64,000 bases of DNA from Promethearchaeota archaeon (GTDB taxonomy: Archaea > Asgardarchaeota > Lokiarchaeia > Sigyniarchaeales > SOKP01). Every line of letters begins with the position of its first letter. The first letter of the stretch is position 1. A program made the position numbers and the translations under genes. The notes below the pieces were generated by a model. It was given only the letters and a program-made list of their open reading frames with translations, did not search any database and was not told the DNA's origin. Shown one piece after another: positions 26,173 through 39,721 of the stretch. The DNA lies in NCBI GenBank assembly GCA_048939995.1, contig JBHLOY010000001.1, positions 32,001 to 96,000 of the forward strand. Direction: 5' to 3'.

Positions 26173-27432
26173 TTAATCTGATTTATTGTTATTAAAATAC
26201 TCTGATTCCAAATTAGGGTATATTTTTTTCTTTCTACCATCCTTTCTAAAATTAATCAGTCCGAGTTCTTTTAGTTTATTTACATGATATTGAATAGTTT
26301 TATGATCCACTTTCAGACGTTTAGTAATTAAGTTATTCCAGAGACCAGGTTCTTTTTCTATCATCTCTAAGACTTCTAACGTTAATTTGCTCTTACTTAG
26401 TTCTACATCTAAATTCGAAATTGGATTTTTTTGATAATATGGAAAATATGTTATAAACTTGCCTATTCTTTTTTTTCCTATGACCTTATACGTTTCTAAT
26501 ATATCTAAATGCCAAACAAGGTTCCCAGCAGCAATTCCCATTTCTCTTAAAAGTTCATTAAAATGAATACCAGGGTTTTTAAGAATTAGATCTATAATAG
26601 CATTTCTATTTTCATTTTCTAAAACTTCCTCTAAACTTAATCGATGTGCACCTTTTTGTATTGGGGTCTGTCTTGTCCTAAGGTAATGAAAGTAGTCCTT
26701 TTTTGATATTAATATCACTATAGAGCCAAAAGCAGCTGCTAAAATTATGATTAGAACTACCCAAAACCATCCATCAAAAATCTCAGTGATTTCAAAAAAT
26801 GTAACAAAGTATTCAGTGTTTGCTTCAATACTCGAAATAGAACTTTCTAAATAACTCTCAGAGCTAGTCTCGTTCAATATTTCATTAGTATCAATTAATT
26901 GCCATGATTCTTGAGTAGGATTATAAAATCCCATTGTATATTGAATACCCGGATTTAATCCATAAAAAGCATTTTTTATACTGCGAAAAACAAGATTTTC
27001 AATAGTTACATTGGATCTAATTCGATAAATACAGTTATATCGATATTGATATTGATTATTTCCTCTTCCTGGGTTTTCAGGTTGTCTAGTTAAGTTAAAT
27101 TCACCTATATCTACTCTAATTGTGACATTCAAGTATATGGGAATGCTATTATTAACAATTATGAAAATTTGACGATTTGAAATTCTATTTTCGTAATTAA
27201 TGTCAATATCTATAATTGTATCTGTAGAAATTCCAAAAATTATGTCATTTGGAAATCTATAGATCACCGTTTCATTTGGATGAATTCTATCTTGATGAGA
27301 AAAAGTGGGAATATCTTCACTTCTTGCTGACACTTGATACATAAAAAAAGTAAATTGAAGGATTACCATAATTGTTATTAATATACTAAATTTCTGTTGA
27401 TTTTTTCTAAAGAAAATGTGAATAAGCCTCAA
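26173..27432 (-). CDS. Membrane-spanning transcription regulator: signal peptide, ectodomain, TM, tandem winged HTH
   Basis: TM WFWVVLIIILAAAFGSIVILI; PGIHFNELLRE..GNLVWHL and PGLW..IQYHVNKL. Confidence 0.85.
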   Translation of the reverse strand: MRLIHIFFRKNQQKFSILITIMVILQFTFFMYQVSARSEDIPTFSHQDRIHPNETVIYRFPNDIIFGISTDTIIDIDINYENRISNRQIFIIVNNSIPIYLNVTIRVDIGEFNLTRQPENPGRGNNQYQYRYNCIYRIRSNVTIENLVFRSIKNAFYGLNPGIQYTMGFYNPTQESWQLIDTNEILNETSSESYLESSISSIEANTEYFVTFFEITEIFDGWFWVVLIIILAAAFGSIVILISKKDYFHYLRTRQTPIQKGAHRLSLEEVLENENRNAIIDLILKNPGIHFNELLREMGIAAGNLVWHLDILETYKVIGKKRIGKFITYFPYYQKNPISNLDVELSKSKLTLEVLEMIEKEPGLWNNLITKRLKVDHKTIQYHVNKLKELGLINFRKDGRKKKIYPNLESEYFNNNKSD

Positions 27433-27501: not shown

Positions 27502-28188
27502 TTATTTCCTTCTTTTAAGATATACAATTCCTATTACTATGACTGCCGCTACAATAGCTATACTAACGCCAATAATGATATATAAAGTAGTATTCTCTGG
27601 AATTAATATTGTCCAATATGAAAAATGAGTAATAGTGGCTGTTAGATATTCATCCTCAATAGTCGTTGGAACTGAAACCCATTCACTTGTAGCTTCATCG
27701 TAATAAGCCCAAGTCCCTACTCTGTTTTGATTGGTTGCTTGGATCCTTATTCTTGCTTGTGTGAAAGTTCCATTACATTCAATATAACAACAAAAACCTT
27801 CTTGATATTGATACGTATTTCTATTTCTTATCCTGTATGTATTACCCATTTGTAATCCTAGTTGCTCTTCTTCACGTGTACAAGTCATATTCATTTGTAA
27901 ATCATGAACTCCATCAATTTCGACTACAAAATCTTTAACACCAATCTGTAATGCTTCACAGTCCATGTTTAAATCTAAATTAACATTAGCTTGAAATGTT
28001 AATTGAGTCCTATCTCGAAAGCGAAACATCGTTCTAATATTTGCTTCTACCGTTTGTTGTCTTGTATCAACTGAAACGTTAACCGTGTCATCAGGGGGAT
28101 CCATAGCCACAACATTTAATGACGCAAACGTAGAAAAAAGCATCATCAAAAGAAATGTACTTAAAAGAATTTTACTTAATTTTCTCAT
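27502..28188 (-). CDS. Secreted, C-terminally anchored protein; ectodomain paralogous to that of 26173..27432
   Basis: Signal peptide, beta-rich domain ending THFSYW, TM, KRRK stop-transfer. Confidence 0.8.
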   Translation of the reverse strand: MRKLSKILLSTFLLMMLFSTFASLNVVAMDPPDDTVNVSVDTRQQTVEANIRTMFRFRDRTQLTFQANVNLDLNMDCEALQIGVKDFVVEIDGVHDLQMNMTCTREEEQLGLQMGNTYRIRNRNTYQYQEGFCCYIECNGTFTQARIRIQATNQNRVGTWAYYDEATSEWVSVPTTIEDEYLTATITHFSYWTILIPENTTLYIIIGVSIAIVAAVIVIGIVYLKRRK

Positions 28189-28287
28189 TTTTTATCTCTC
28201 AATTATTTTTAAGAAATACAAATCAAATCTATATAAAAAGGATTGAGGAATGATTCTTCCCAATTGAATTAAGTTCATTTTGGAATA

Positions 28288-29259
28288 TTAATCTAATAAT
28301 ATAGTATCAATCTTTTGTACTAAGTCAGAGGATAAAGGCCCTAATTCCAATGTTCTAGCATTTTCTTCAATTTGTGCAATTGTTTTAGCCCCCGGGATCG
28401 GGATTATAGTATCACTAATAGTCATGAGGTAACAAAGTTGGGCTTGAATTATTGTTATTCCTTCTTGATCTATCATATTTTTTAATTCTTGAAGCATTTT
28501 GTTAATTTTTTTGTATCGTTCTTGAGAAAAGTTAACTCCAGCAAGCATATGATCAGCTTCAATCTTAGATTGCTCATTGTATTTACCGGTTAGAATACCA
28601 GAAGCTAAAGGACTTCTTATTAATCCAATTAAATTGAATTTTTCGCAAAGTTGTATCATTTGTTCGTTTTTTAAAGTTAGGTTCATTGCGAATTGTACTG
28701 AATTGCAATTTTTACTTTTTGCGAATATCTGCATTCGATTTGGGTCGTCTGTACTCCATCCATAGCCGCCTATAATTCCCTCTTCTACTAAATCTTCTAA
28801 GATTAATTGTACTTCTTTAGCGTCATTAGGGTCATGCTGACTGGAATGGAATTGGTAAATATCAATATAATCGGTTTGAAGCCGCTCCATACTGGCTTCA
28901 ATAGCACTACGAATATACTCAGGACTAGTATTTTTCTTATCTGGAGTTAAAAGATTACCTTCCTCAAAAATACTTCCGAATTTTGTAGCGACTACAAGAT
29001 CATCTCTATATTCTTTTATGGCTTCTCCGAGAACTTTTTCACTTCTCCCTACTCCATATATATCTGCTGTATCAAAAAGATTAATTCCAAGCTCTATAGC
29101 CCTATGAATAGTTTTGATTGATTCTTGATCATTTACTTTTCCATACGCCAGATAAGTTCCATCAGAGCGCTTGAACGGTCCACCAAGAGCAAAGCATCCC
29201 ATTCCAAGAGCATTTATAGTTTTTTTACTTCCTTTAAGTTTTCTTTTTAACATAATCAC
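28288..29259 (-). CDS. Aldo/keto reductase
   Basis: LGMGC, FDTADIYG, ATKFG, TDYIDIYQFH, PIPGAK. Confidence 0.93.
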   Translation of the reverse strand: MIMLKRKLKGSKKTINALGMGCFALGGPFKRSDGTYLAYGKVNDQESIKTIHRAIELGINLFDTADIYGVGRSEKVLGEAIKEYRDDLVVATKFGSIFEEGNLLTPDKKNTSPEYIRSAIEASMERLQTDYIDIYQFHSSQHDPNDAKEVQLILEDLVEEGIIGGYGWSTDDPNRMQIFAKSKNCNSVQFAMNLTLKNEQMIQLCEKFNLIGLIRSPLASGILTGKYNEQSKIEADHMLAGVNFSQERYKKINKMLQELKNMIDQEGITIIQAQLCYLMTISDTIIPIPGAKTIAQIEENARTLELGPLSSDLVQKIDTILLD

Positions 29260-29588
29260 TAATTTTTAAAAAATAAGTGTAACTTAATATAGCACTAATT
29301 ACTAACACTGTTTTACGTTCTATTAAAGAAATCTGCTGATATATAGTTTGAAATATTGAACTTCACTTGAAGTTTAATCTTAATAAAGTTTTATGATATT
29401 TCCCTTCTTGTTTATTTTGAATGATTTGGATACTGAAAATAAAGAAATCCTTAAAATTAAAAATAATAAATATTATATTTTAGCATATAATTTGAAAATA
29501 TTATTATAGACTTTAAAATATAATAAAATTATTGAAAAGGAATTAATTTATAATAATATAACAGAATTTAAAAATTGGAGAAATACTT

Positions 29589-31844
29589 ATGACACTAAAA
29601 GAAATTACTAAGGAAATTTTCACGAGATATGGATTTACTGAGGAGCAAATCCTTATTTATCTAGTATATTTGAGAGTACCAAGAGCTACAGCTTCCGAAG
29701 TTTATCTAACATTAATGGATGGTCATGAAGAACTCACTTATGATAGTGTTTTAGAAATCACAGAATGGTTAGTTGATAAGGGATTTCTTAAAAAAATTAC
29801 TGGAATCGTGGATAGATTTATTCCACTTGAACCTTATTTTGAACTATACATTGGAGAGTCAGAGGGTTTTAGAGATGAAATTGCAAAAATTAAAGATCAT
29901 ATACTAGCTGATCAAGCTAAAAGGTTTGAAAAGCTAGAAGCAATTCAAGATAAAAGTATCAATGAAGTCGAAACTGCTGTTGATAACCAAATCAAAGCTT
30001 TCTTTTCGGATTCTGATACAAAAAATAATGATAAAAGGGAAAAGATTAATAACGCTCGAAATAGATTTACAGATACTTCCAAAACATTGGAAGAAAATCT
30101 CCATAACATTTTAGATACATTAAATATAGATTTAAAGGAAATTTCCGATTCTAAAATCAAGGAAAATGAGGATGGTGTTAATAAAACTAAAGATAATTTA
30201 ACTAATCTTATCTCTGATTTATTAAGTGATTTTTCAAAACGCGTTAATGATCTAGAAAAAGAACTAAAAAATGATTTAGATAATCATGTAGAGAGACACA
30301 AAACTATAGCTAGCGATTTAAAACCAAGAATGGAACAAATACTAGAAAAGTATTTAGAAAGAATGGATAAAATTGTTACCGATTTAAAAGAAAGAATTTC
30401 TCGTCTCTTAAAAGAACATCTTAATCATTTAAAGAACACCACCGATACACTTTCTACTAATTTGAAAGCAACTGTAGATGATAGACACCGAATCTTAACT
30501 GAACAAACAAATGAATTTAAAAGCATGACATTAACACTTATAGACAATCTTTTAGAGCATGCCAATCGATTTACTGATTTTTCAGCAGATATGGCTAAAA
30601 AAGGATTCTTCTGGATGGGTAAAAAGAAAAAGTATAAAGCGCGCCATGAAACCACAATCCAAAATATTTTAATATATACGGAGCCAATGAAAGATGGATT
30701 CATAGACGTAAGTGAGAATTATATCAAAGATACAAGGGATACAAACGAGACTCTAAAAGGTGAAATTACTGATATAATGATTAAGGAAAATGATAATGTA
30801 GTAACTGAAACTACAGATCTTGACCAGAAGGCTCAAGAAACCATTAACGTTCAACTAGAAACCTTAGCCACCGATATGGCTGGTGAAATCAATAATACCC
30901 TTACAAGTGGTGTAAAAGACTGTTCAGACACTACAATAAAGTTGAAGGATGGTTTAGAAAATGCACTCAAACAACACCACCGCCAATATGATGATGCAAT
31001 TAATAAACATAAGGATCTTTCATTAAAGCATTACACAGACTTTGATAGTGAAGTAAAACAAACAAAAGCGAATTGGATTAGAGAAGTGGATGATAAATTC
31101 ATTGCTGGAAAAGCAGATACATCCGAAAAAATTACGAATGAGATTAGTTTATGGGGGGATGAGTCAGCAGATTTAGATAGAAATTTAAGTCAAATGCTCA
31201 CAGATCATAAATCTAAATATGAACAAAACGCTAAGTCTCTTGAAAGTAGCTTATCTAACACGACGCAAGATACAACTCAAAATGTTAAAGATGTAATAGC
31301 TGATTTCACTCTTCAGTTTATGAATTCTATTGATGATGCAACTGAACTAGCAGAAAAGAATGAAGCTAAATTAAAGGATATATATAACGCTTCAGCAGCA
31401 ATCCCAGAGTTAGCTGAAGTAACAACTTGGCCAATAGTAGGAAAGGAAGCTATGATCGCTGCTATTAAGGATGCTGTCTTTAGAACTAAATCCTCGATAA
31501 TTGTTGTCATGCCATCTGTTATTCCTGAAGTTCTACAAGTTGTAAGTGAATATGCTTACCAGAAAAAAGCGGCGAGGTTTCTACTCACTAGTCATTGGGA
31601 TATGAGTCAATACGGTGATATTATAAGAAAAATGATGGCTCTTGGAAATATTCAGTTTAGACAACTTAGTAGCACAGGAGAATTTTTTGCTGTAACCCGT
31701 GATGCCGAGGAGGTAATTATAGGGCCTGCAACTGATAAAGAAAGTGAGATGATATCAATTGTATCAAACCAAATGCAGTATAGTATTTTGTATTCACAGT
31801 TCATCGGTCCTATTTTCCAGGCGAATAGCCGCCCTATTAAATAG
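29589..31844 (+). CDS. TrmB-like wHTH, ~520-aa helical insert, TrmB/PLD-like C-terminal domain
   Basis: GFTEEQILIYLVYL...TASEV...LVDKGF..FIPLEP; C-terminal TWPIVGKEAM..SIIVVMP..RDAEEVIIG. Confidence 0.72.
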   Translation: MTLKEITKEIFTRYGFTEEQILIYLVYLRVPRATASEVYLTLMDGHEELTYDSVLEITEWLVDKGFLKKITGIVDRFIPLEPYFELYIGESEGFRDEIAKIKDHILADQAKRFEKLEAIQDKSINEVETAVDNQIKAFFSDSDTKNNDKREKINNARNRFTDTSKTLEENLHNILDTLNIDLKEISDSKIKENEDGVNKTKDNLTNLISDLLSDFSKRVNDLEKELKNDLDNHVERHKTIASDLKPRMEQILEKYLERMDKIVTDLKERISRLLKEHLNHLKNTTDTLSTNLKATVDDRHRILTEQTNEFKSMTLTLIDNLLEHANRFTDFSADMAKKGFFWMGKKKKYKARHETTIQNILIYTEPMKDGFIDVSENYIKDTRDTNETLKGEITDIMIKENDNVVTETTDLDQKAQETINVQLETLATDMAGEINNTLTSGVKDCSDTTIKLKDGLENALKQHHRQYDDAINKHKDLSLKHYTDFDSEVKQTKANWIREVDDKFIAGKADTSEKITNEISLWGDESADLDRNLSQMLTDHKSKYEQNAKSLESSLSNTTQDTTQNVKDVIADFTLQFMNSIDDATELAEKNEAKLKDIYNASAAIPELAEVTTWPIVGKEAMIAAIKDAVFRTKSSIIVVMPSVIPEVLQVVSEYAYQKKAARFLLTSHWDMSQYGDIIRKMMALGNIQFRQLSSTGEFFAVTRDAEEVIIGPATDKESEMISIVSNQMQYSILYSQFIGPIFQANSRPIK

Positions 31845-32213
31845 AATTGGGAACTAATGATCTACGAGAATTAAAAACTGGAGCAATATGAGAAAACTAA
31901 GATAATCTATTGCTAAAAATTTATTTTTTCTTCTTATTTTTTATTATTATGAATTAATTTATTTATCAATCAATAAAATTTTGATATTTCTCCTTTAATA
32001 TAAACTCTACAAACATAATTATTAATTTTTCGTAAGATATTGGTTCCGTTTTATCAATTCTATTCCAATTTAGTATTCAATATAACTTTTTATAGGAGAA
32101 GGAACAATTCTCCAATCAGTATACACAAAAACTTAAAGATTTTATCATCTTCAGCTTAGAATTTGAAGAGAAAATCTAAGGTAAACTTAATATATAGGTA
32201 TGACATAAATAAT

Positions 32214-32251
32214 ATTTGAATCTAAGTAGCTTAAAATACTTAAATTCAAAT
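32214..32251. promoter_or_regulatory. 15-bp imperfect inverted repeat (operator or 5'-UTR hairpin)
   Basis: ATTTGAATCTAAGTA-N8-TACTTAAATTCAAAT (14/15 match), between a TATA-like tract (~32188) and a GGTGA SD-like motif. Confidence 0.5.
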
Positions 32252-32283
32252 TTAGTAAGAGTGGTGATTAAAAAAAAAGCATA

Positions 32284-33018
32284 GTGAGTAAACCCATGAA
32301 AATAGATAGAGTTAAGTTGGATCTCTCTATCGTTGCGGGGATTCTGTTAACGTTGGTTGTATCTATTCTTCTGGGATTTGTATTGGTTGGGGGCTTTCTA
32401 ATAAATACCGATAATATACATGCTCCGCTTAACTTGGGATACCAAACATCTCAAGTAAATATAATAGGCGCTGATAAATACATATCGGGAAATAACACGA
32501 TCGTGTCTGTAGCTCAAGATACCAGTTGTTCGATGGATACCGAAAAGGGTTCAATCGTAATTTATGATTATTACTTGCCTGATGTACTTCCATTGTGCAT
32601 CACTCAAGAAGTCTTAAGTAATTATTACGTCGTGGTCGCCGTAACCGGTGGTTATGAACCAATTGACGGGTCTATCACACTCTACCAGAAAGGAGAACTG
32701 AAAGGTGTTATTGATGTTGATTGGACATATCGTGGTCATGAGCCATGCTATACAGACTACTGGCTTGCTACATTCGTACTCCCTGACGGAGTCGATTCGA
32801 TCGAATTAGAAAGCAATCAGTGGCCTGATGGCGCAAAACCATTATTCCCAGAATATTGTACCATACCTGGTAAAAAAGTATGTCTTGATATTGATACTTT
32901 ATGGCAAGGTTGTACCCTTGAGGAAAAACAACGGTTTGAGTTAATACAGATACATCAACTAGTATTGAACAAGTCCCCAACTCCCCATGAGGTTTTTAAA
33001 AGTCTCATCGCCAGTTAA
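32284..33018 (+). CDS. Hypothetical exported/membrane-anchored protein, elevated GC
   Basis: N-terminal TM and beta-rich soluble part; two sampled 60-mers are each 28/60 GC. Confidence 0.65.
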   Translation: MSKPMKIDRVKLDLSIVAGILLTLVVSILLGFVLVGGFLINTDNIHAPLNLGYQTSQVNIIGADKYISGNNTIVSVAQDTSCSMDTEKGSIVIYDYYLPDVLPLCITQEVLSNYYVVVAVTGGYEPIDGSITLYQKGELKGVIDVDWTYRGHEPCYTDYWLATFVLPDGVDSIELESNQWPDGAKPLFPEYCTIPGKKVCLDIDTLWQGCTLEEKQRFELIQIHQLVLNKSPTPHEVFKSLIAS

Positions 33019-33102
33019 CTATGCGACGATTAATCTTTACTCTTTTTTTTTTTTCTTTTATTTTAATATAAAGTAAAATATTTATTTTACTAGCAATAAT
33101 AA

Positions 33103-33636
33103 ATGATGATAATATTGGCAGGTCAAAAAAGTAAAAAGGCAGAGGATATGATTGTTCGATATCTTGATGAAGAGGACTTATTAAATAAAAAAGTATCAGA
33201 CTCTAAGGTCGAATTTGGATACATATTCAGGTTTCCTCCAAATCAACAACGACAATCAATGCAAGTAGTTCACCCTATTAACAGTGATTATGTTGTTATT
33301 TCCTTAGGGATACGAATACCAGATGTTTTTGTACAAGCACTTAATGCTATAGAACCTCATAAGAAAGTACAATTTTATATCGATATAAGAAAATTTTTAT
33401 TTACACAAAATTTCTTATTCCGATTTGAATTAGCATTAAATCGCTTTCATATTAGTGATCAACTATATTTTAAAGAAGGAGGGCAAATTTCCAAGAATAA
33501 ATTTTTTAAGACTGTAAGAAAAATCTATAATGCATCTCAGTATTGCATCCTCCTTTTAGAAGAATATTGCATGGATAAGATTGATAAAAAGTATTTGGAA
33601 CCCAGTGATTTGGCGGATCCACAATTTTATTCATGA
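33103..33636 (+). CDS. DUF2299-like protein
   Basis: YLDEEDL...FPP..MQVVHP..VISLGIRI...IYF..ISKNKFFKTVRKI pattern. Confidence 0.6.
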   Translation: MMIILAGQKSKKAEDMIVRYLDEEDLLNKKVSDSKVEFGYIFRFPPNQQRQSMQVVHPINSDYVVISLGIRIPDVFVQALNAIEPHKKVQFYIDIRKFLFTQNFLFRFELALNRFHISDQLYFKEGGQISKNKFFKTVRKIYNASQYCILLLEEYCMDKIDKKYLEPSDLADPQFYS

Positions 33637-33646
33637 ATCTTTTAAA

Positions 33647-36600
33647 TTAAGTAATGAACATTGCTACAGTGATTAATGTTAATAGTACTATAATCAGTAG
33701 CATGACCCTTTTAATTATATTCTTCTGTTTTTTATCACCAGAGCTATAGTATCTACTTTTCTTCATTATAAGAGGAAATGTTATTGCAACACCTCCCAAA
33801 CATCCTAAAAAGATTAGATCTGTAATCTCAAATGGAAGTGGGATTGGTGTAAAGGGTAAAGTTGGGACATATTTTATTACAACCAATTCACTAAAATTAC
33901 GATTGTTCATTCTATCCTCAGCATAGAAACGAATTGTAATATTACCATTTATAGTTGTATTATCCCATATGGATTCCCATAATGTTTGGTCAATTCTACC
34001 ATACCTCCCAACGAAAGAAACATTCACATTTATCCCAATGATATTATACCAGCTGTAAAATAAATTCCCATCTGTGATATCGACCTCAAAGAACGGTGGA
34101 TCTCTCTCTACATTTTGATTCTGAGCAGGAGATAATATCGATATGGACGGAGCAATAATATCTTTTCGAACCGTTACAGGAGTAGTACGTTGGTTACCTA
34201 TGATATCAAATACATATAAATAGATTGTAATAGACCCATTACTAAATTGATTCCATAAGGATTGATCGATTTCAATTACATGATTATCTATATCATTCCA
34301 GTCGATTATTGATGATGTATTTGATTCACTCGTTAGTCGATAAGATATCTCTGAAACACCACTACCATCATCAATATAGACATAGAGAATAGGGCGTTCA
34401 TGACCGTATAACTCATTTGTGTCAGGATAATATATTAAAACTTCGGGAGCGATGATATCTTTTCTAACGGAAAGGTTTGCATAGGCTAAATTCCCAACAA
34501 TGTCTTCAGCACAAAACATAATTATAACTGTACCATTCCCAATAGTGTTCCAATCTGTCGATAAAATTGATCCTGTCCAAATTCTTGAAGGCGTTATTAG
34601 AACATTGAATAATTGATAAGAAATTGAGAAAATTGAATTTTCATCGTAACAGGTAATACTTACTCCTGGAGGAGTTGTTCCAAATAAAGTAAAAGGAATT
34701 GGAGAGTTAATTAGAAGAGTTGGCGATATAGTATCTTTTCTCAATGAAATAGTATTAAATCCGACATTTCCAAGAGTATCGTTAATATAAAAGACTATAC
34801 TTAGTGTTCCATTTCTAAAAGCTTCCCAAGCGATAGGATCTACGGATCCATCCCAGATTATATTTGATGTCGAAAAAGTAGTGTTATATAATTGATACCA
34901 AATTGTATCTATAGAAGCAGAGCTAATATAAAGAGTAATATTGGGTCGGTTTAATCCAAATAAATCATTATCACTAGGATCTAAAATTATAATGATGGGA
35001 TCGAATAAGTTTTTTCTTAAATTTAGTGTTGCTGAGGCTAAATTATTAACCGAATCATAGGCAATAAATCGGATGATTACACTTCCATTTCCTATTTGAT
35101 CCCAATCTTCTTGATAGATAAAACCTAACCATTCTTGATATGGTGTTATTACAGACCCATTATCCAATTGATACCACACACTTTCAAGATGGGCGTCGCT
35201 TACAGTTACATTAATTATTGGTGCGGTGATTCCATATAATTGACCATCTTGTGGATCATGGATAATAATTATGGGTGAAATGCTATCTTTATATATACTA
35301 ATATTAACTGAAATCATATTATCAAGCGTATCGTTAGCGAAGAAAACAATAAACACAGTTCCATTCGGCATTGTATTCCAATCACTTGTATAGATAAAAC
35401 CGCTCCATTCTCGTAGGGGAGTCGTGATAATACCATTAGTTAATTGAGACCATTTAGAATCTACTCCATTAATATCATAAAAAGTAACTATGCAACTAGG
35501 AACAGGCTTTCCCAGTACTCTATGTGGAGTAGGACTGATTATATTAATATCTGGACCAATTACATCCTTGTAGATTGACACATTGCTCATTCCAATATTA
35601 CTAACTGTATCATTAGCATAAAAAACAATGGTGACTGATCCATTGGACATCATGTTCCAATCATCTAGTTGTATCGATCCAGCCCAGATTCTTCCATTTG
35701 TAGTGGTTATACCATCTGTTAATTGGTACCAAGTTTCATTAACGCCATTTATATCAGTAAATATTACTGTACATGGAGGTGGATTTATTCCAAATACACT
35801 ATGGGGAAGTGGTTCCGCAATGTTAATTTCTGGTCCATAAATGTCTTTATAGATAGATATACTTAGTGCTTCTTTATTTCCCAATGTATCATTAGCATAA
35901 AAGAAAATAGTCACTGTTCCATTAGACATGGCTTTCCAGTCATCAATGTGAATAAAGCCTGTCCATTCACGAATAGGAGTAGAAATTATGCCATCTGTTA
36001 ATTCATACCATACATAATCAATAGAGTTTCTATCATATAGTGTTAAATTACACATAGGAGGAATTTGACCAAAAATTTCGTAAGCTTGAGGGTTATTAAT
36101 GACGATAACTGGAGATCGAATGTCTTTATATAAATTAATTGTGTCAAAATTTAAGTTTCCAACACTGTCATTTGCATATAATATGATAATGAGAGATCCA
36201 TTTCCTATCATACTCCAATCATTAATATCAATTGATCCAGTCCATACTTGTGAATTCGTAGTAATTGTTCCATTAGTCAATTGATACCAGGTGGTATTAA
36301 CTCCATTGGTATCATAGAAAGTCACATCACACATAGGTGGAATAGTCCCCGCGAGATCATACGGATGTGGTTCATTGATATTGATACTAGGTGCAATTAT
36401 ATCCTTATAGATTGATACATTAGATGTTCCAATATTACCTAATGTATCATTAGCATAAAAAATAAGAGTCAATGTTCCATTAGACATAGCATTCCAGTCA
36501 TCAGCGTGAAGAAAACCTGTCCATTCACGAATAGTAGTAGTAAAGGTGCCATTAGTTAATTTATACCATACGTAATCAATAGAATTCCTATCATACAGGG

Positions 36601-39600
36601 TTAAATCACAGTTAGGGGCAATGTGCCCAAATATCTCCTGAAAATTTGGTTCATTAATCGTTATGGAAGGAGATATGATATCTTTATAAACTGAAACATT
36701 AGTGGTTGCTATATTCCCTAACGTATCGTTTGCATAAAAGATAATGAACACAGTTCCATTAGCCATATTTATCCAATCATCAATTTGAATAGTACCAGTC
36801 CAATCACGAACATTAGTAGTTGTTGTTCCATCAGTTAATTCATACCATATATAATCAATGAAATTTATGTCATATAGAGTTAAATTACAATTGGGGGGAT
36901 CTTGACCATATAGATCATGAGCTAATGGTTCATTAATAATTATTGTAGGAGAAATAATGTCTTTATACACTGAAACGTTAGTAGATGCTGTATTACCTAA
37001 AGTATCGTTGGCATAGAAAATGATAATAATCGAACCATTGCCTAATATAGACCAATTATCGAAATCAATTATTCCAATCCATTCCCGTAAAGCGGTACTG
37101 ACTGTTCCATCAGTTAATTGATACCATTTGGCATCTACTCCGCTTATATCGTAAAATGATACATTACATTCGGGCTGCAAAGTTCCGAATACTTCATAAG
37201 AATTAGGATTAATAATAGTAATGATAGGAGCGATGATATCCTTATACAATGATAAATCAGCGGTTGCTATATTACCTAAGGTATCATTCGCATAGAAAAT
37301 GATGGTAACAGAACCATTGCCTAATATAGTCCAATCATTGAAATCAATCATTCCAATCCATTCCCGTAAAGTTGTGCTAACTGTTCCATCAGTTAACTGA
37401 TACCATTTGGTATCTACTCCATTTATATCATAAAATGATACATTACATTCAGGCTGCAGAGTACCGAATACCTCATAAGGATTAGGCTCATTAATGTTAA
37501 TAATAGGAGCGATCACATCTTTGTACACAGAAACATTAGTTGTAGCTATATTACCCAAAGTATCATTTGCGTAAAATATAATAGTAACAGAGCCATTACT
37601 CATAGCAGCCCAATCATTGAGATCAATTGTACCACTCCATTCGCGAAAGCTAGATGTAGTGATTCCGTCAGTTAACTTATACCATACAGTATCAATAGAA
37701 TTAATATCATATAAGGTTATATTGCAATCTGGTGGATTTTGACCAAATAAGTCATGTAATTTTGGCTCATTAATAGTAATATAAGGAGAAATTATGTCCT
37801 TGTAAATGATAACATTTTCAGAATTAATATTTCCTATACTATCATTTGCAAAAAACATGATGGTGACTGTGCCATTTCCCATTATATTCCAATCACTAAT
37901 GTCAATTGATCCTGTCCAAATCCGTGAATTTGTGGTAAAGGTTCCATTAGTTAATTGGTACCAAGTTTCATTAACTCCATTAATATCATAAAAAGACACA
38001 TCACATATAGGAGGGGTAACACTAAATAGATTGTATGGTTTTGGTTCATTAATCAGAATATTGGGTGCAATAATGTCCTTGTAGATTGATATATTAATCA
38101 TCCCTATGTTGCTTATAGTGTCATTTGCATAAAAGAAAATAGTCACTGTTCCATTAGACATTGTGTCCCAGTCATCTGAATGTATAGTACCTGTCCATTC
38201 TCTCTTAGGAGTTATAGTGATTCCATCAGTCAAGTAATACCAAGTTGTATTCACTCCATTTATGTCGTAAAATGACACATTACATTCGGGAGGGGAAATT
38301 CCAAAGATTTCATACTCAGCTGGTCTATTAATTTGAATAGTAGGTGGAATAATATCTTTATATATAGTAACGTTATTCTTTCCTAAATTGCCCATAGTAT
38401 CATTAGCAAAGAAATTGATGATTATAGTTCCATTAGATTGCAGTTCCCATTCACTTTCAGAGATTATTCCATCATTTTGGCCAGAGATTCCATTAAAGTA
38501 AATTGGAGTCCCATTATTTACTGTATACCAAGTTGAATTGAGATTAGACTCAAGGATAATAATAGTAAAATTACAAGTATCATTTCCAAAAATAGAGAGA
38601 AGTCCTGGAAATATAATATCAATGGAAGGAGTTTCAATATCCTTATAAACAATAATTGCTCTGGAATCCTCATATCCTCTACTATCATTTACATAAAAAA
38701 AGATAGTATGTGATCCATTTACTAATAAGCTCCAGACTAAAGCATTAATAGATCCATTTGTATTGAAATGATTTTTGGTTGGATCACTATCAATCATATA
38801 CCACCAACTATGACTCACTCCTTCTTCTAGAGAAACACTGAAATTAAGAGACGAAGATCCATATAACGAATAAGGGATGGGGGATATTATAGTAATTAGG
38901 GGGGCATCCCACCAAACTGGAGAATAATCTTGACTTCCTGCCAAACCAGAAATGATGTATGGAGTATCACCAATTCCATTATCATCAGTATCTTTTCCTA
39001 CATAATCATCCCAAGAATTGCCTTGATCTCCGATATTCCAAGCATTATTCATGCCTGAATCATTAGCATGTATTGTATTATTAATAAAAGTATTACTATA
39101 AATGTTGTTATTGTTAGAATTAGCAACATTAACTCCTTGCAATAAGTTGTCAAAAATATTATTCTCATAAATTATATTTTCACTACTACTCTGGTTTAAA
39201 TAGATTCCATAATTATTTGAAAAAATGTCATTTCCTTCAATCGATGAGTTATGGCTATCAATTAACATGATCCCTACTGAATTGTGATAACATGATATAT
39301 CCATTATCCTGCCATTCTCACTATTTTCCAATCTTATTCCTGCGCTGAAAGAGTCTGTAGAATTGTTGGATAAAATACAATCTCTAATTATAAAGTGAAC
39401 ACTTTGCGAATTATTAATGAAAATAGCTGCAATTGTAGCATTTGTGAAAATATCCACATCTTCTATAATAAAGGGATCATTCCAAGAGCCAGAACCGCTA
39501 CACCAATCATAATTAGCAGCAGTCTCTGTCCAATTATTATCTATATGAATGAATATTTTATTTATATCAGAAAGATTTGGGATAAAATTATCGTGAATTT

Positions 39601-39721
39601 TATTTTTAATTACTCCTTTGGGGATTATATATGGTAGAATTGGAGTGAAATTAAAAATTAAGAATAGAACGACAAGTAAAACGGTTTTAACCGACTTTTT
39701 TCGATATTTTTCCATTTTCAT
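33647..39721 (-). CDS. Giant cell-surface glycoprotein: right-handed beta-helix (NosD/CASH-like), 18 Ig-like repeats, C-terminal TM hairpin
   Basis: Signal peptide, GSGSWNDPFIIE, N-rich beta-helix, GIGDTPY.I; 93-aa repeats D..P.I.I..P...WY...W..NGT..FYANDT.GN. Confidence 0.9.
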   Translation of the reverse strand: MKMEKYRKKSVKTVLLVVLFLIFNFTPILPYIIPKGVIKNKIHDNFIPNLSDINKIFIHIDNNWTETAANYDWCSGSGSWNDPFIIEDVDIFTNATIAAIFINNSQSVHFIIRDCILSNNSTDSFSAGIRLENSENGRIMDISCYHNSVGIMLIDSHNSSIEGNDIFSNNYGIYLNQSSSENIIYENNIFDNLLQGVNVANSNNNNIYSNTFINNTIHANDSGMNNAWNIGDQGNSWDDYVGKDTDDNGIGDTPYIISGLAGSQDYSPVWWDAPLITIISPIPYSLYGSSSLNFSVSLEEGVSHSWWYMIDSDPTKNHFNTNGSINALVWSLLVNGSHTIFFYVNDSRGYEDSRAIIVYKDIETPSIDIIFPGLLSIFGNDTCNFTIIILESNLNSTWYTVNNGTPIYFNGISGQNDGIISESEWELQSNGTIIINFFANDTMGNLGKNNVTIYKDIIPPTIQINRPAEYEIFGISPPECNVSFYDINGVNTTWYYLTDGITITPKREWTGTIHSDDWDTMSNGTVTIFFYANDTISNIGMINISIYKDIIAPNILINEPKPYNLFSVTPPICDVSFYDINGVNETWYQLTNGTFTTNSRIWTGSIDISDWNIMGNGTVTIMFFANDSIGNINSENVIIYKDIISPYITINEPKLHDLFGQNPPDCNITLYDINSIDTVWYKLTDGITTSSFREWSGTIDLNDWAAMSNGSVTIIFYANDTLGNIATTNVSVYKDVIAPIININEPNPYEVFGTLQPECNVSFYDINGVDTKWYQLTDGTVSTTLREWIGMIDFNDWTILGNGSVTIIFYANDTLGNIATADLSLYKDIIAPIITIINPNSYEVFGTLQPECNVSFYDISGVDAKWYQLTDGTVSTALREWIGIIDFDNWSILGNGSIIIIFYANDTLGNTASTNVSVYKDIISPTIIINEPLAHDLYGQDPPNCNLTLYDINFIDYIWYELTDGTTTTNVRDWTGTIQIDDWINMANGTVFIIFYANDTLGNIATTNVSVYKDIISPSITINEPNFQEIFGHIAPNCDLTLYDRNSIDYVWYKLTNGTFTTTIREWTGFLHADDWNAMSNGTLTLIFYANDTLGNIGTSNVSIYKDIIAPSININEPHPYDLAGTIPPMCDVTFYDTNGVNTTWYQLTNGTITTNSQVWTGSIDINDWSMIGNGSLIIILYANDSVGNLNFDTINLYKDIRSPVIVINNPQAYEIFGQIPPMCNLTLYDRNSIDYVWYELTDGIISTPIREWTGFIHIDDWKAMSNGTVTIFFYANDTLGNKEALSISIYKDIYGPEINIAEPLPHSVFGINPPPCTVIFTDINGVNETWYQLTDGITTTNGRIWAGSIQLDDWNMMSNGSVTIVFYANDTVSNIGMSNVSIYKDVIGPDINIISPTPHRVLGKPVPSCIVTFYDINGVDSKWSQLTNGIITTPLREWSGFIYTSDWNTMPNGTVFIVFFANDTLDNMISVNISIYKDSISPIIIIHDPQDGQLYGITAPIINVTVSDAHLESVWYQLDNGSVITPYQEWLGFIYQEDWDQIGNGSVIIRFIAYDSVNNLASATLNLRKNLFDPIIIILDPSDNDLFGLNRPNITLYISSASIDTIWYQLYNTTFSTSNIIWDGSVDPIAWEAFRNGTLSIVFYINDTLGNVGFNTISLRKDTISPTLLINSPIPFTLFGTTPPGVSITCYDENSIFSISYQLFNVLITPSRIWTGSILSTDWNTIGNGTVIIMFCAEDIVGNLAYANLSVRKDIIAPEVLIYYPDTNELYGHERPILYVYIDDGSGVSEISYRLTSESNTSSIIDWNDIDNHVIEIDQSLWNQFSNGSITIYLYVFDIIGNQRTTPVTVRKDIIAPSISILSPAQNQNVERDPPFFEVDITDGNLFYSWYNIIGINVNVSFVGRYGRIDQTLWESIWDNTTINGNITIRFYAEDRMNNRNFSELVVIKYVPTLPFTPIPLPFEITDLIFLGCLGGVAITFPLIMKKSRYYSSGDKKQKNIIKRVMLLIIVLLTLITVAMFIT
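33875..38908 (-). repeat. Intragenic tandem array of 18 degenerate ~279-bp units
   Basis: ATAGGAGCGAT at 37224 and 37503 gives a 279-nt period; units 6 and 7 are the most similar pair. Confidence 0.88.

Follow-up and report, generated by a model that had tools for sequence, protein, structure and literature searches.

The stretch analysed here (the window: 64,000 nucleotides of contig JBHLOY010000001.1, assembly GCA_048939995.1, from a Promethearchaeota archaeon of the class Lokiarchaeia) carries on its forward strand, at positions 29589-31844, one uninterrupted frame of 751 codons followed by a stop codon. The encoded protein is a TrmB/TrmBL2 scaffold with what is very probably a giant hairpin: a winged helix-turn-helix (wHTH) domain and a phospholipase D (PLD)-fold domain enclose a helical insert of some 520 residues, which bears an aromatic and basic motif at its midpoint. 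The gene is single-copy in its own genome and looks monocistronic and housekeeping-like, outside any sugar regulon or defence island. A T-rich run lies about 75 nt 3' of the stop codon, small antisense open reading frames (ORFs) inside the gene are unsupported, and an Rfam search of positions 28000-34000 gave zero matches. An initial annotation had described this ORF as a split TrmB-like regulator, and its ORF coordinates, midpoint arithmetic and length estimate were all correct.

The TrmB-type base

The 751-aa protein was modelled with AlphaFold2 (AF2) from a 32-sequence alignment, with a mean predicted local distance difference test score (pLDDT) of 79.5. In this model, the wHTH extends to residue 79, two helices (83-337 and 346-603) are separated by a loop at 338-345, and an alpha/beta domain occupies residues 613-749, which fits the domain borders first drawn from the sequence (wHTH to about residue 82, TrmB/PLD-like domain from about residue 605). 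The N-terminal TrmB-type wHTH (aa 1-82; 29589-29834, + strand) was assessed through Pfam, a family profile and its fold. Its score against Pfam PF01978 is sub-threshold (12.3 bits, cut-off 25.6), while distant family members pass the same cut-off with 44.6 and 30.5 bits, and a profile built from the N-domains of the family matches TrmB of P. furiosus (3QPH) with an E value of 4.8e-5. Because this profile finds TrmB and distant members pass the Pfam cut-off, we assign the base to a TrmBL2-like scaffold. The wHTH fold also resembles the wHTH of Fur, PerR and MecI (Z 11-12).

The C-terminal domain (aa 612-751; 31422-31841, + strand), characterised with VIA-align and Foldseek, is a non-catalytic PLD-fold domain that corresponds to the N-subdomain in the effector domain of TrmB and to the C-domain of TrmBL2. 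VIA-align superposed model residues 612-751 on residues 110-242 of TrmB (2f5t_X; Z 17.1, root-mean-square deviation 2.1 A, 131 aligned residues) and on TrmBL2 (5bpi_C; Z 15.9, 2.5 A, 136 residues), and catalytic PLD enzymes ranked below both (Z 12-15.5). An identity as a phospholipase D superfamily enzyme was rejected: the 751 aa contain no HxK(x)4D catalytic motif, and the sole histidine of the C-domain, H669, lies outside an HKD context. The sugar-binding beta-barrel subdomain of TrmB is not present either, as the chain stops at residue 751, right after the PLD-fold subdomain, and the TrmB alignment ends at residue 242 of 2f5t. Since that subdomain is absent, the protein is not a sugar regulator; the initial annotation had likewise set it apart from ordinary sugar regulators, and the closest known architecture is indeed that of a chromatin protein, TrmBL2.

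TrmBL2 (TK0471/PF0496; PDB 5BPD, 5BPI, 5BOX), a chromatin protein characterised by non-specific DNA binding and the formation of fibres, shares with the rod protein the order wHTH, helix, PLD-fold domain, and both are without the sugar-binding subdomain. It differs in its size (264 aa) and in its short helix, where the present protein has a hairpin of about 520 residues; identity between the two is about 10%, and Y50/D51 are not kept here. TrmB itself (2F5T, 3QPH) provides the best structural match of the C-domain and the profile match of the N-domain, but includes the sugar-binding beta-barrel subdomain, whereas the rod protein has neither this subdomain nor sugar-related neighbours and carries a giant rod. 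The amphipathic helix that in the TrmB family follows the wHTH and runs on to the effector domain is present, starts at residue 83, and in the AF2 model has grown into a hairpin of 255 and 258 residues. Tyr50 and Asp51 are the key DNA-contacting residues of TrmB (PMC4158304). In a HMMER alignment to 3QPH their positions are taken by L55 and E56, and the protein's own Y51-D52 pair aligns four residues earlier, with TrmB Y46-N47; given these replacements, DNA binding by the base cannot be assumed.

Two paired helical arms

The insert (residues 83-604) contains two prolines (246 and 366) and has a net charge of -27, bearing out its first description as nearly Pro-free and acidic. It consists of an N-arm helix of 255 residues, about 38 nm long (aa 83-337; 29835-30599, + strand), delimited by AF2 and by hendecad periodicity, and a C-arm helix of 258 residues (aa 346-603; 30624-31397, + strand), delimited by AF2 and by arm-length compensation. 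Hydrophobic residues account for 26-29% of the rod and form a narrow seam, with a period of 3.65 and a constant 11/3 phase along both arms.

Arm lengths were measured with three hidden Markov models (N-domain, apex region and C-domain) anchored on database orthologues and on 32 genomic loci. Ten N-arm/C-arm length classes were obtained (200/188, 211/199, 240/228, 244/232, 251/239, 262/250, 284/272, 295/283, 306/294 and 350/338), and the N-arm exceeds the C-arm by 12 residues in 10/10 of them. The nine length increments (11, 40, 44, 51, 62, 84, 95, 106 and 150) all equal 0 or 7 modulo 11, and are whole hendecads with or without one heptad, consistent with the 3.65 periodicity. Orthologue comparison located one insertion hot spot in each arm: in the N-arm after about aa 163 (30075-30080, + strand), where longer orthologues add up to 150 residues, and in the C-arm after aa 510-513 (31116-31127, + strand). 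These two sites roughly face each other, since their sums of 673-676 approach the pairing sum of about 683 set by the loop. Arm lengths also co-vary in SMC proteins. A rod-less Sigynarchaeota record (P0133; NCBI nr, 323 aa) keeps residues 1 to ~120 and ~560 to 751, a deletion whose two ends would face each other in the paired arms (120+563=683), although this is a single record and possibly an assembly artefact. The new turn in P0133 reads SKAKKNMNN.

A second AF2 run, on an Asgard relative of 21% identity that belongs to a different family of the phylum, gave the same arrangement at lower confidence (helix 77-341, loop 342-348, helix 349-604; pLDDT 65.8), with the loop GRRSFIG embedded in RGRRSFIGRFG. 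Taken together, the models of these two relatives, the compensation across ten length classes, the facing insertions and the rod-less variant indicate that the two arms almost certainly pair antiparallel, which places the wHTH and the PLD-like domain at one end and the aromatic/basic motif at the other, as had been proposed. The other half of that proposal, that a single chain folds back on itself, is in our view very probable from the models. Because an extended antiparallel dimer predicts identical arm covariation, this intramolecular hairpin rests on the Gly/Pro turn at the midpoint and on the AF2 models, in which two unbroken helices meet at a low-confidence apex loop (338-345) inside the motif. 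Among orthologues, tip variants hold the central position in 48/48 while the arm-length difference stays constant at 12.

Conservation along the rod was also compared between arms. A mirror correlation peaking at i+j=682 (r 0.63) was dropped from the evidence, as r is 0.79 when the profile is shifted in parallel by 200 residues. This self-correlation of rod conservation (aa 90-600) at a parallel shift of about 200 residues may be a trace of an old duplication within the rod.

Arms of Rad50 and SMC proteins, and the cytoplasmic hairpins of methyl-accepting chemotaxis proteins, are likewise long antiparallel hairpins whose two ends lie together at one pole and whose apex is conserved and functional. 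With Foldseek, 768 columns were aligned to the Rad50 chain of 7zr1, and the model aligned through its apex with the chemoreceptor hairpin 2ch7; the alignments to the Rad50 chain of 7zr1 and to cohesin 7ogt are long and loosely superposed. The rod protein differs from all of these in having no ATPase head, hinge, zinc hook or signalling partners, in a repeat of 11 rather than 7 residues, and in showing no sequence relationship to them. SMC/Rad50 membership was rejected, as the chain begins with a wHTH and ends with a PLD-like domain and neither Pfam nor NCBIfam detected an ATPase. Matches to ZorA (PADLOC, NCBIfam), apolipoprotein and ExoVII (Pfam) were sub-threshold and reflect periodicity or composition. 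For ZorA of Zorya defence, PADLOC and NCBIfam matched nothing but the tail region of ZorA, the protein has no MotA/ExbB domain and no transmembrane segment in its rod, and the gene is a core single-copy gene.

The apex and a candidate inter-arm site

With AF2 helices at 83-337 and 346-603, the helical midpoint is residue 343, which lies inside the motif KKGFFWMGKKKKYK (aa 337-350; 30597-30638, + strand), whose loop proper spans aa 338-345 (30600-30623). The motif was delimited by composition, AF2 and orthologues, and its loop has a pLDDT below 50. Both its placement at the exact midpoint of the rod and its uniqueness as an aromatic and basic patch, claimed from the sequence at the outset, hold: among all 14-residue windows of the protein, KKGFFWMGKKKKYK ranks best for net charge (+7), with four aromatic residues and no acidic one. 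No other hexapeptide of the protein reaches a Wimley-White interfacial energy as favourable as that of GFFWMG (-4.3 kcal/mol), and KKGFFW is a segment that we take to resemble the E. coli MinD sequence.

In more than 100 orthologues that share 71-93% identity, the apex motif shows little or no variation, and recognisable variants are centrally placed in 48/48 class-level orthologues examined. Three variants occur in Lokiarchaeia (AKKGFFW-MGKKKKYKA, xxGFFF-GKKKKxKF and SxRGSAFKALFxGKHKxY). At the apex, each of the 48 orthologues carries five or more hydrophobic and two or more aromatic residues, and net charge there ranges from +8 to +1; since the hydrophobic and aromatic minimum is held throughout while charge falls to +1, the greasy character of the apex is more conserved than its basic character. 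Proteins of about 720-770 aa from 10 distant Asgard lineages differ in their midpoint sequences and are alike in character, most combining basic residues, aromatic or hydrophobic residues, and Gly or Pro (e.g., RKKAFTG, KTSFFGSSG, KVGFRKPFP, TRGVWPFKKK, GRRLFSGKK, GVFKKP and LKKKKASP). Several longer relatives (about 1000-1300 aa) have plain helical sequence at their computed midpoint and may be differently organised.

About 100 residues below the apex lies what looks, from residue conservation and facing positions, like a candidate inter-arm metal or redox clamp. Its N-arm half would be H233-x3-H237 (30285-30299, + strand), two histidines separated by one helical turn and each conserved in 47/48 orthologues. 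Its C-arm half would be D444-C445 (30918-30923, + strand), conserved in 46/48 orthologues at each position (D/H444 and C445), with C445 the sole cysteine of the protein. In the hairpin, H237 and C445 face each other (237+445=682, against an apex sum of about 683). The 21%-identical relative has an HxxxH (241-245) opposite Cys 450 (sums 691-695, apex sum 690), and the HxxxH/Cys pair is found also in other distant Asgard relatives of about 20% identity. Pro246 in the N-arm helix (30324-30326, + strand), invariant in 48/48 orthologues and a possible kink, adjoins a dip in AF2 confidence; paired pLDDT dips at 251-270 and 411-430 adjoin both this proline and the His/Cys site. OxsR is a known thiol-based regulator of the TrmB family (PMC9426492).

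Distribution, setting and proposed function

Within the class, the gene was detected in 111/121 genomes, including 37/40 of the high-quality ones. Across the phylum, relatives (E <= 1e-6) were present in 139/201 genomes and 45/56 genera, with open frames of about 600 to about 1800 aa, and by source name these relatives include Jord-, Hod-, Thor-, Heimdall- and Sigynarchaeota. Among close orthologues, more than 100 clusters of 71-93% identity are every one exactly 751 aa long, with zero indels. A homologue search from a Thor/Hod relative (P0247) yielded two proteins only, low-complexity words having saturated the candidates. A literature search found no description of the family or its architecture, and a 2026 Asgard proteomics preprint gives only summed 'TrmBL' abundances, which are not assignable to the 751-aa protein.

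The PLD-like C-domain is a mobile module. It occurs alone (140-230 aa), fused to TPR repeats, or before transmembrane segments (P0144, P0160, P0171, P0216 and P0223). A paralogue in the same genome (contig C28, L002:874-2838, - strand; 654 aa) comprises a wHTH, about 250 helical residues, a PLD-like domain that matches the C-domain profile at E 2.3e-15, a Pro/Lys-rich linker and an extra C-terminal domain. In one Asgard family (G130, G140, G149, G156, G161; P0208, P0250), relatives of about 1794 aa have helical inserts of about 1540 residues, which, if hairpins, would form rods longer than 100 nm.

Genomic neighbours vary by genus, and include Fae-Hps, an amidohydrolase, a GH2 glycosidase, aIF5B and an MFS transporter. 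Two genes recur upstream, in divergent orientation, in the closer genera only. In the window, these encode a 228-aa secreted, anchored protein with a signal peptide and a C-terminal anchor (27502-28188, - strand) and a membrane-anchored double-wHTH protein of 419 aa (26173-27432, - strand), which has an N-terminal hydrophobic segment, a transmembrane segment at about aa 222-245 and two C-terminal wHTH domains (HVO_0163-type, HTH_24). An aldo/keto reductase gene (28288-29259, - strand) lies between this divergent pair and the rod gene, and a 2024-aa ORF lies downstream on the opposite strand (33647-39721, - strand).

We propose that the protein is a structural member of the TrmB/TrmBL2 family. 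Ordinary members have a short dimerising helix between their two domains; here its place would be taken by an antiparallel hairpin of two helices, 520 residues in 11-residue repeats, and a straight and rigid rod of about 38 nm would rise from a base that unites the two globular domains. Like its relatives, the protein is assumed to be at least a dimer, so that the base would probably be oligomeric. The base would bind DNA or another ligand, DNA being the first candidate by analogy with TrmBL2. The exposed apex loop GFFWMG, flanked by seven Lys/Arg residues, would act as a peripheral membrane anchor: aromatic side chains would enter the interface, basic residues would bind anionic lipid head groups, and several weak tips together would supply affinity for the anionic inner face of the membrane. 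In this way, a strut of fixed length would keep the ligand of the base at a set distance from the membrane. Weak membrane anchors that act through multivalency are documented for the MinD membrane-targeting sequence (PMC8155659), and DNA-membrane links have precedents (PMC6538776; bioRxiv 10.64898/2026.03.06.710092). The membrane anchors of DNA organisers (the MinD membrane-targeting sequence, Noc, RacA, MatP and RicO) similarly combine a short basic and hydrophobic element that is weak alone with multivalency (PMC8155659); the rod protein differs from MinD-type anchors in presenting an internal loop at a rod tip rather than a terminal amphipathic helix, and its membrane binding is a prediction. 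A strut with a membrane-anchored tip and a base that holds DNA or another ligand is overall the best explanation that we can offer, with a probability of roughly 45%.

Several observations weigh against this proposal. At the base, the wHTH has a net charge of -5 and an acidic putative recognition helix, and these features, along with the replacement of Y50/D51 by L55/E56, mean that DNA binding may be altered or lost; by analogy with its relatives, we would give the base an even chance of binding DNA. At the tip, polybasic character is not universal, with a net charge of only +1 to +2 in several lineages, and part of the conserved hydrophobic pattern (SAFKALF) could merely cap the coiled coil. 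A Kyte-Doolittle scan of the rods of family members found no transmembrane segment in any of them, which limits the tip to a peripheral anchor at best, and across genera the gene has no conserved neighbour that could be a membrane partner. The AF2 models are, moreover, monomers. Judged from the composition of its loop, membrane binding by the tip is plausible at slightly under even odds.

The same data must be weighed under other explanations. The protein could be an architectural component of chromatin, its base binding DNA like TrmBL2 and its polybasic apex binding a second DNA or blocking loop extruders, so that DNA would be spaced or bridged at about 38 nm with no membrane contact. The closest solved relatives do include TrmBL2, a non-specific chromatin protein and SMC roadblock (PMC4158304; PMC11840125), apex net charge reaches +8, and the gene is core and housekeeping-like. 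We nevertheless consider this rather unlikely, as the best-conserved feature of the apex is its hydrophobic and aromatic content, not its charge, which would be unusual in a DNA-binding loop, and the DNA-recognition residues of TrmB are not retained. The apex could instead be a site of protein docking or self-association comparable to the Rad50 hook or a chemoreceptor tip; rods would then be linked to one another at their apices, or attached to a partner in the cytoskeleton or envelope. Conservation that reaches about 30 residues either side of the loop (LIDNLLEHANRFTDF ... ARHETTIQNIL), beyond the needs of a membrane anchor, speaks for it, as does the existence of hairpin rods with conserved functional tips (2ch7, 7zr1). 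However, no conserved neighbouring gene points to a partner, and the apex sequence diverges strongly among Asgard classes with only its physicochemical character kept, a better fit to a generic surface, which leaves docking somewhat less likely still.

Other alternatives concern the fold or the type of protein. In an extended antiparallel homodimer, the chains would form a rod of about 77 nm; at each end, the wHTH from one chain would lie beside the PLD domain of its partner, and the aromatic/basic motif would be in the centre. Arm compensation, facing insertions and the i+j pairing rule are equally predicted by this arrangement, and TrmB has been described as a domain-swapped dimer formed via a coiled-coil helix (PMC4158304), but a helix-breaking Gly or Pro is conserved at the midpoint in every lineage and two independent AF2 models place a loop there, making such a dimer quite improbable. 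A lipid binder akin to apolipoproteins or perilipins, in which helices of 11-residue repeats open and spread over a lipid surface, would account for the shared 11-residue periodicity and for weak matches to apolipoprotein A-I (26.1 bits in Pfam; E ~4e-3 in PDB). The score against PF01442 of 26.1 bits compares with a cut-off of 90, a seam of 26-29% hydrophobic residues offers no broad lipid face, and exact arm compensation favours stable pairing of the helices, so that we regard this possibility as very remote. Finally, some databases label orthologues 'sugar-specific transcriptional regulator TrmB', as would suit an ordinary ligand-responsive transcription factor of the TrmB family with a long linker. 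This is hardly credible for a protein without the sugar-binding subdomain, whose neighbours are unrelated housekeeping genes that vary by genus and whose rod length is fixed to the residue inside clades.

Returning to the membrane-anchored strut, its most specific form would be a fixed-length ruler that stands on chromatin and reaches with its tip into the membrane's inner face. DNA would thereby be kept some 38 nm away from the envelope, a distance that could grow to about 60 nm with the longest Lokiarchaeia orthologues, and a His2-Cys(-Asp/His) metal or redox site may lock the two arms. Such a ruler would represent a prokaryotic counterpart of lamina-type DNA-envelope tethers among the nearest relatives of eukaryotes, and is a speculative extension that we hold to be doubtful. 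The broader notion of a molecular spacer is suggested by rod length, which does not vary by a single residue inside a clade and otherwise shifts only in whole helical repeats that both arms gain alike.

The interior organisation of Asgard archaea is a central question for the origin of eukaryotic cells, and to our knowledge few lineage-wide structural proteins are known in these organisms beyond actin, ESCRT and histones. The family described here is a near-universal single-copy gene of Lokiarchaeia with relatives across the phylum. Regardless of whether it acts as a tether, it offers a clear natural case of indel compensation in a long hairpin; should its tip bind the membrane and its base DNA, Asgard archaea would have their first candidate for a DNA-envelope tether.

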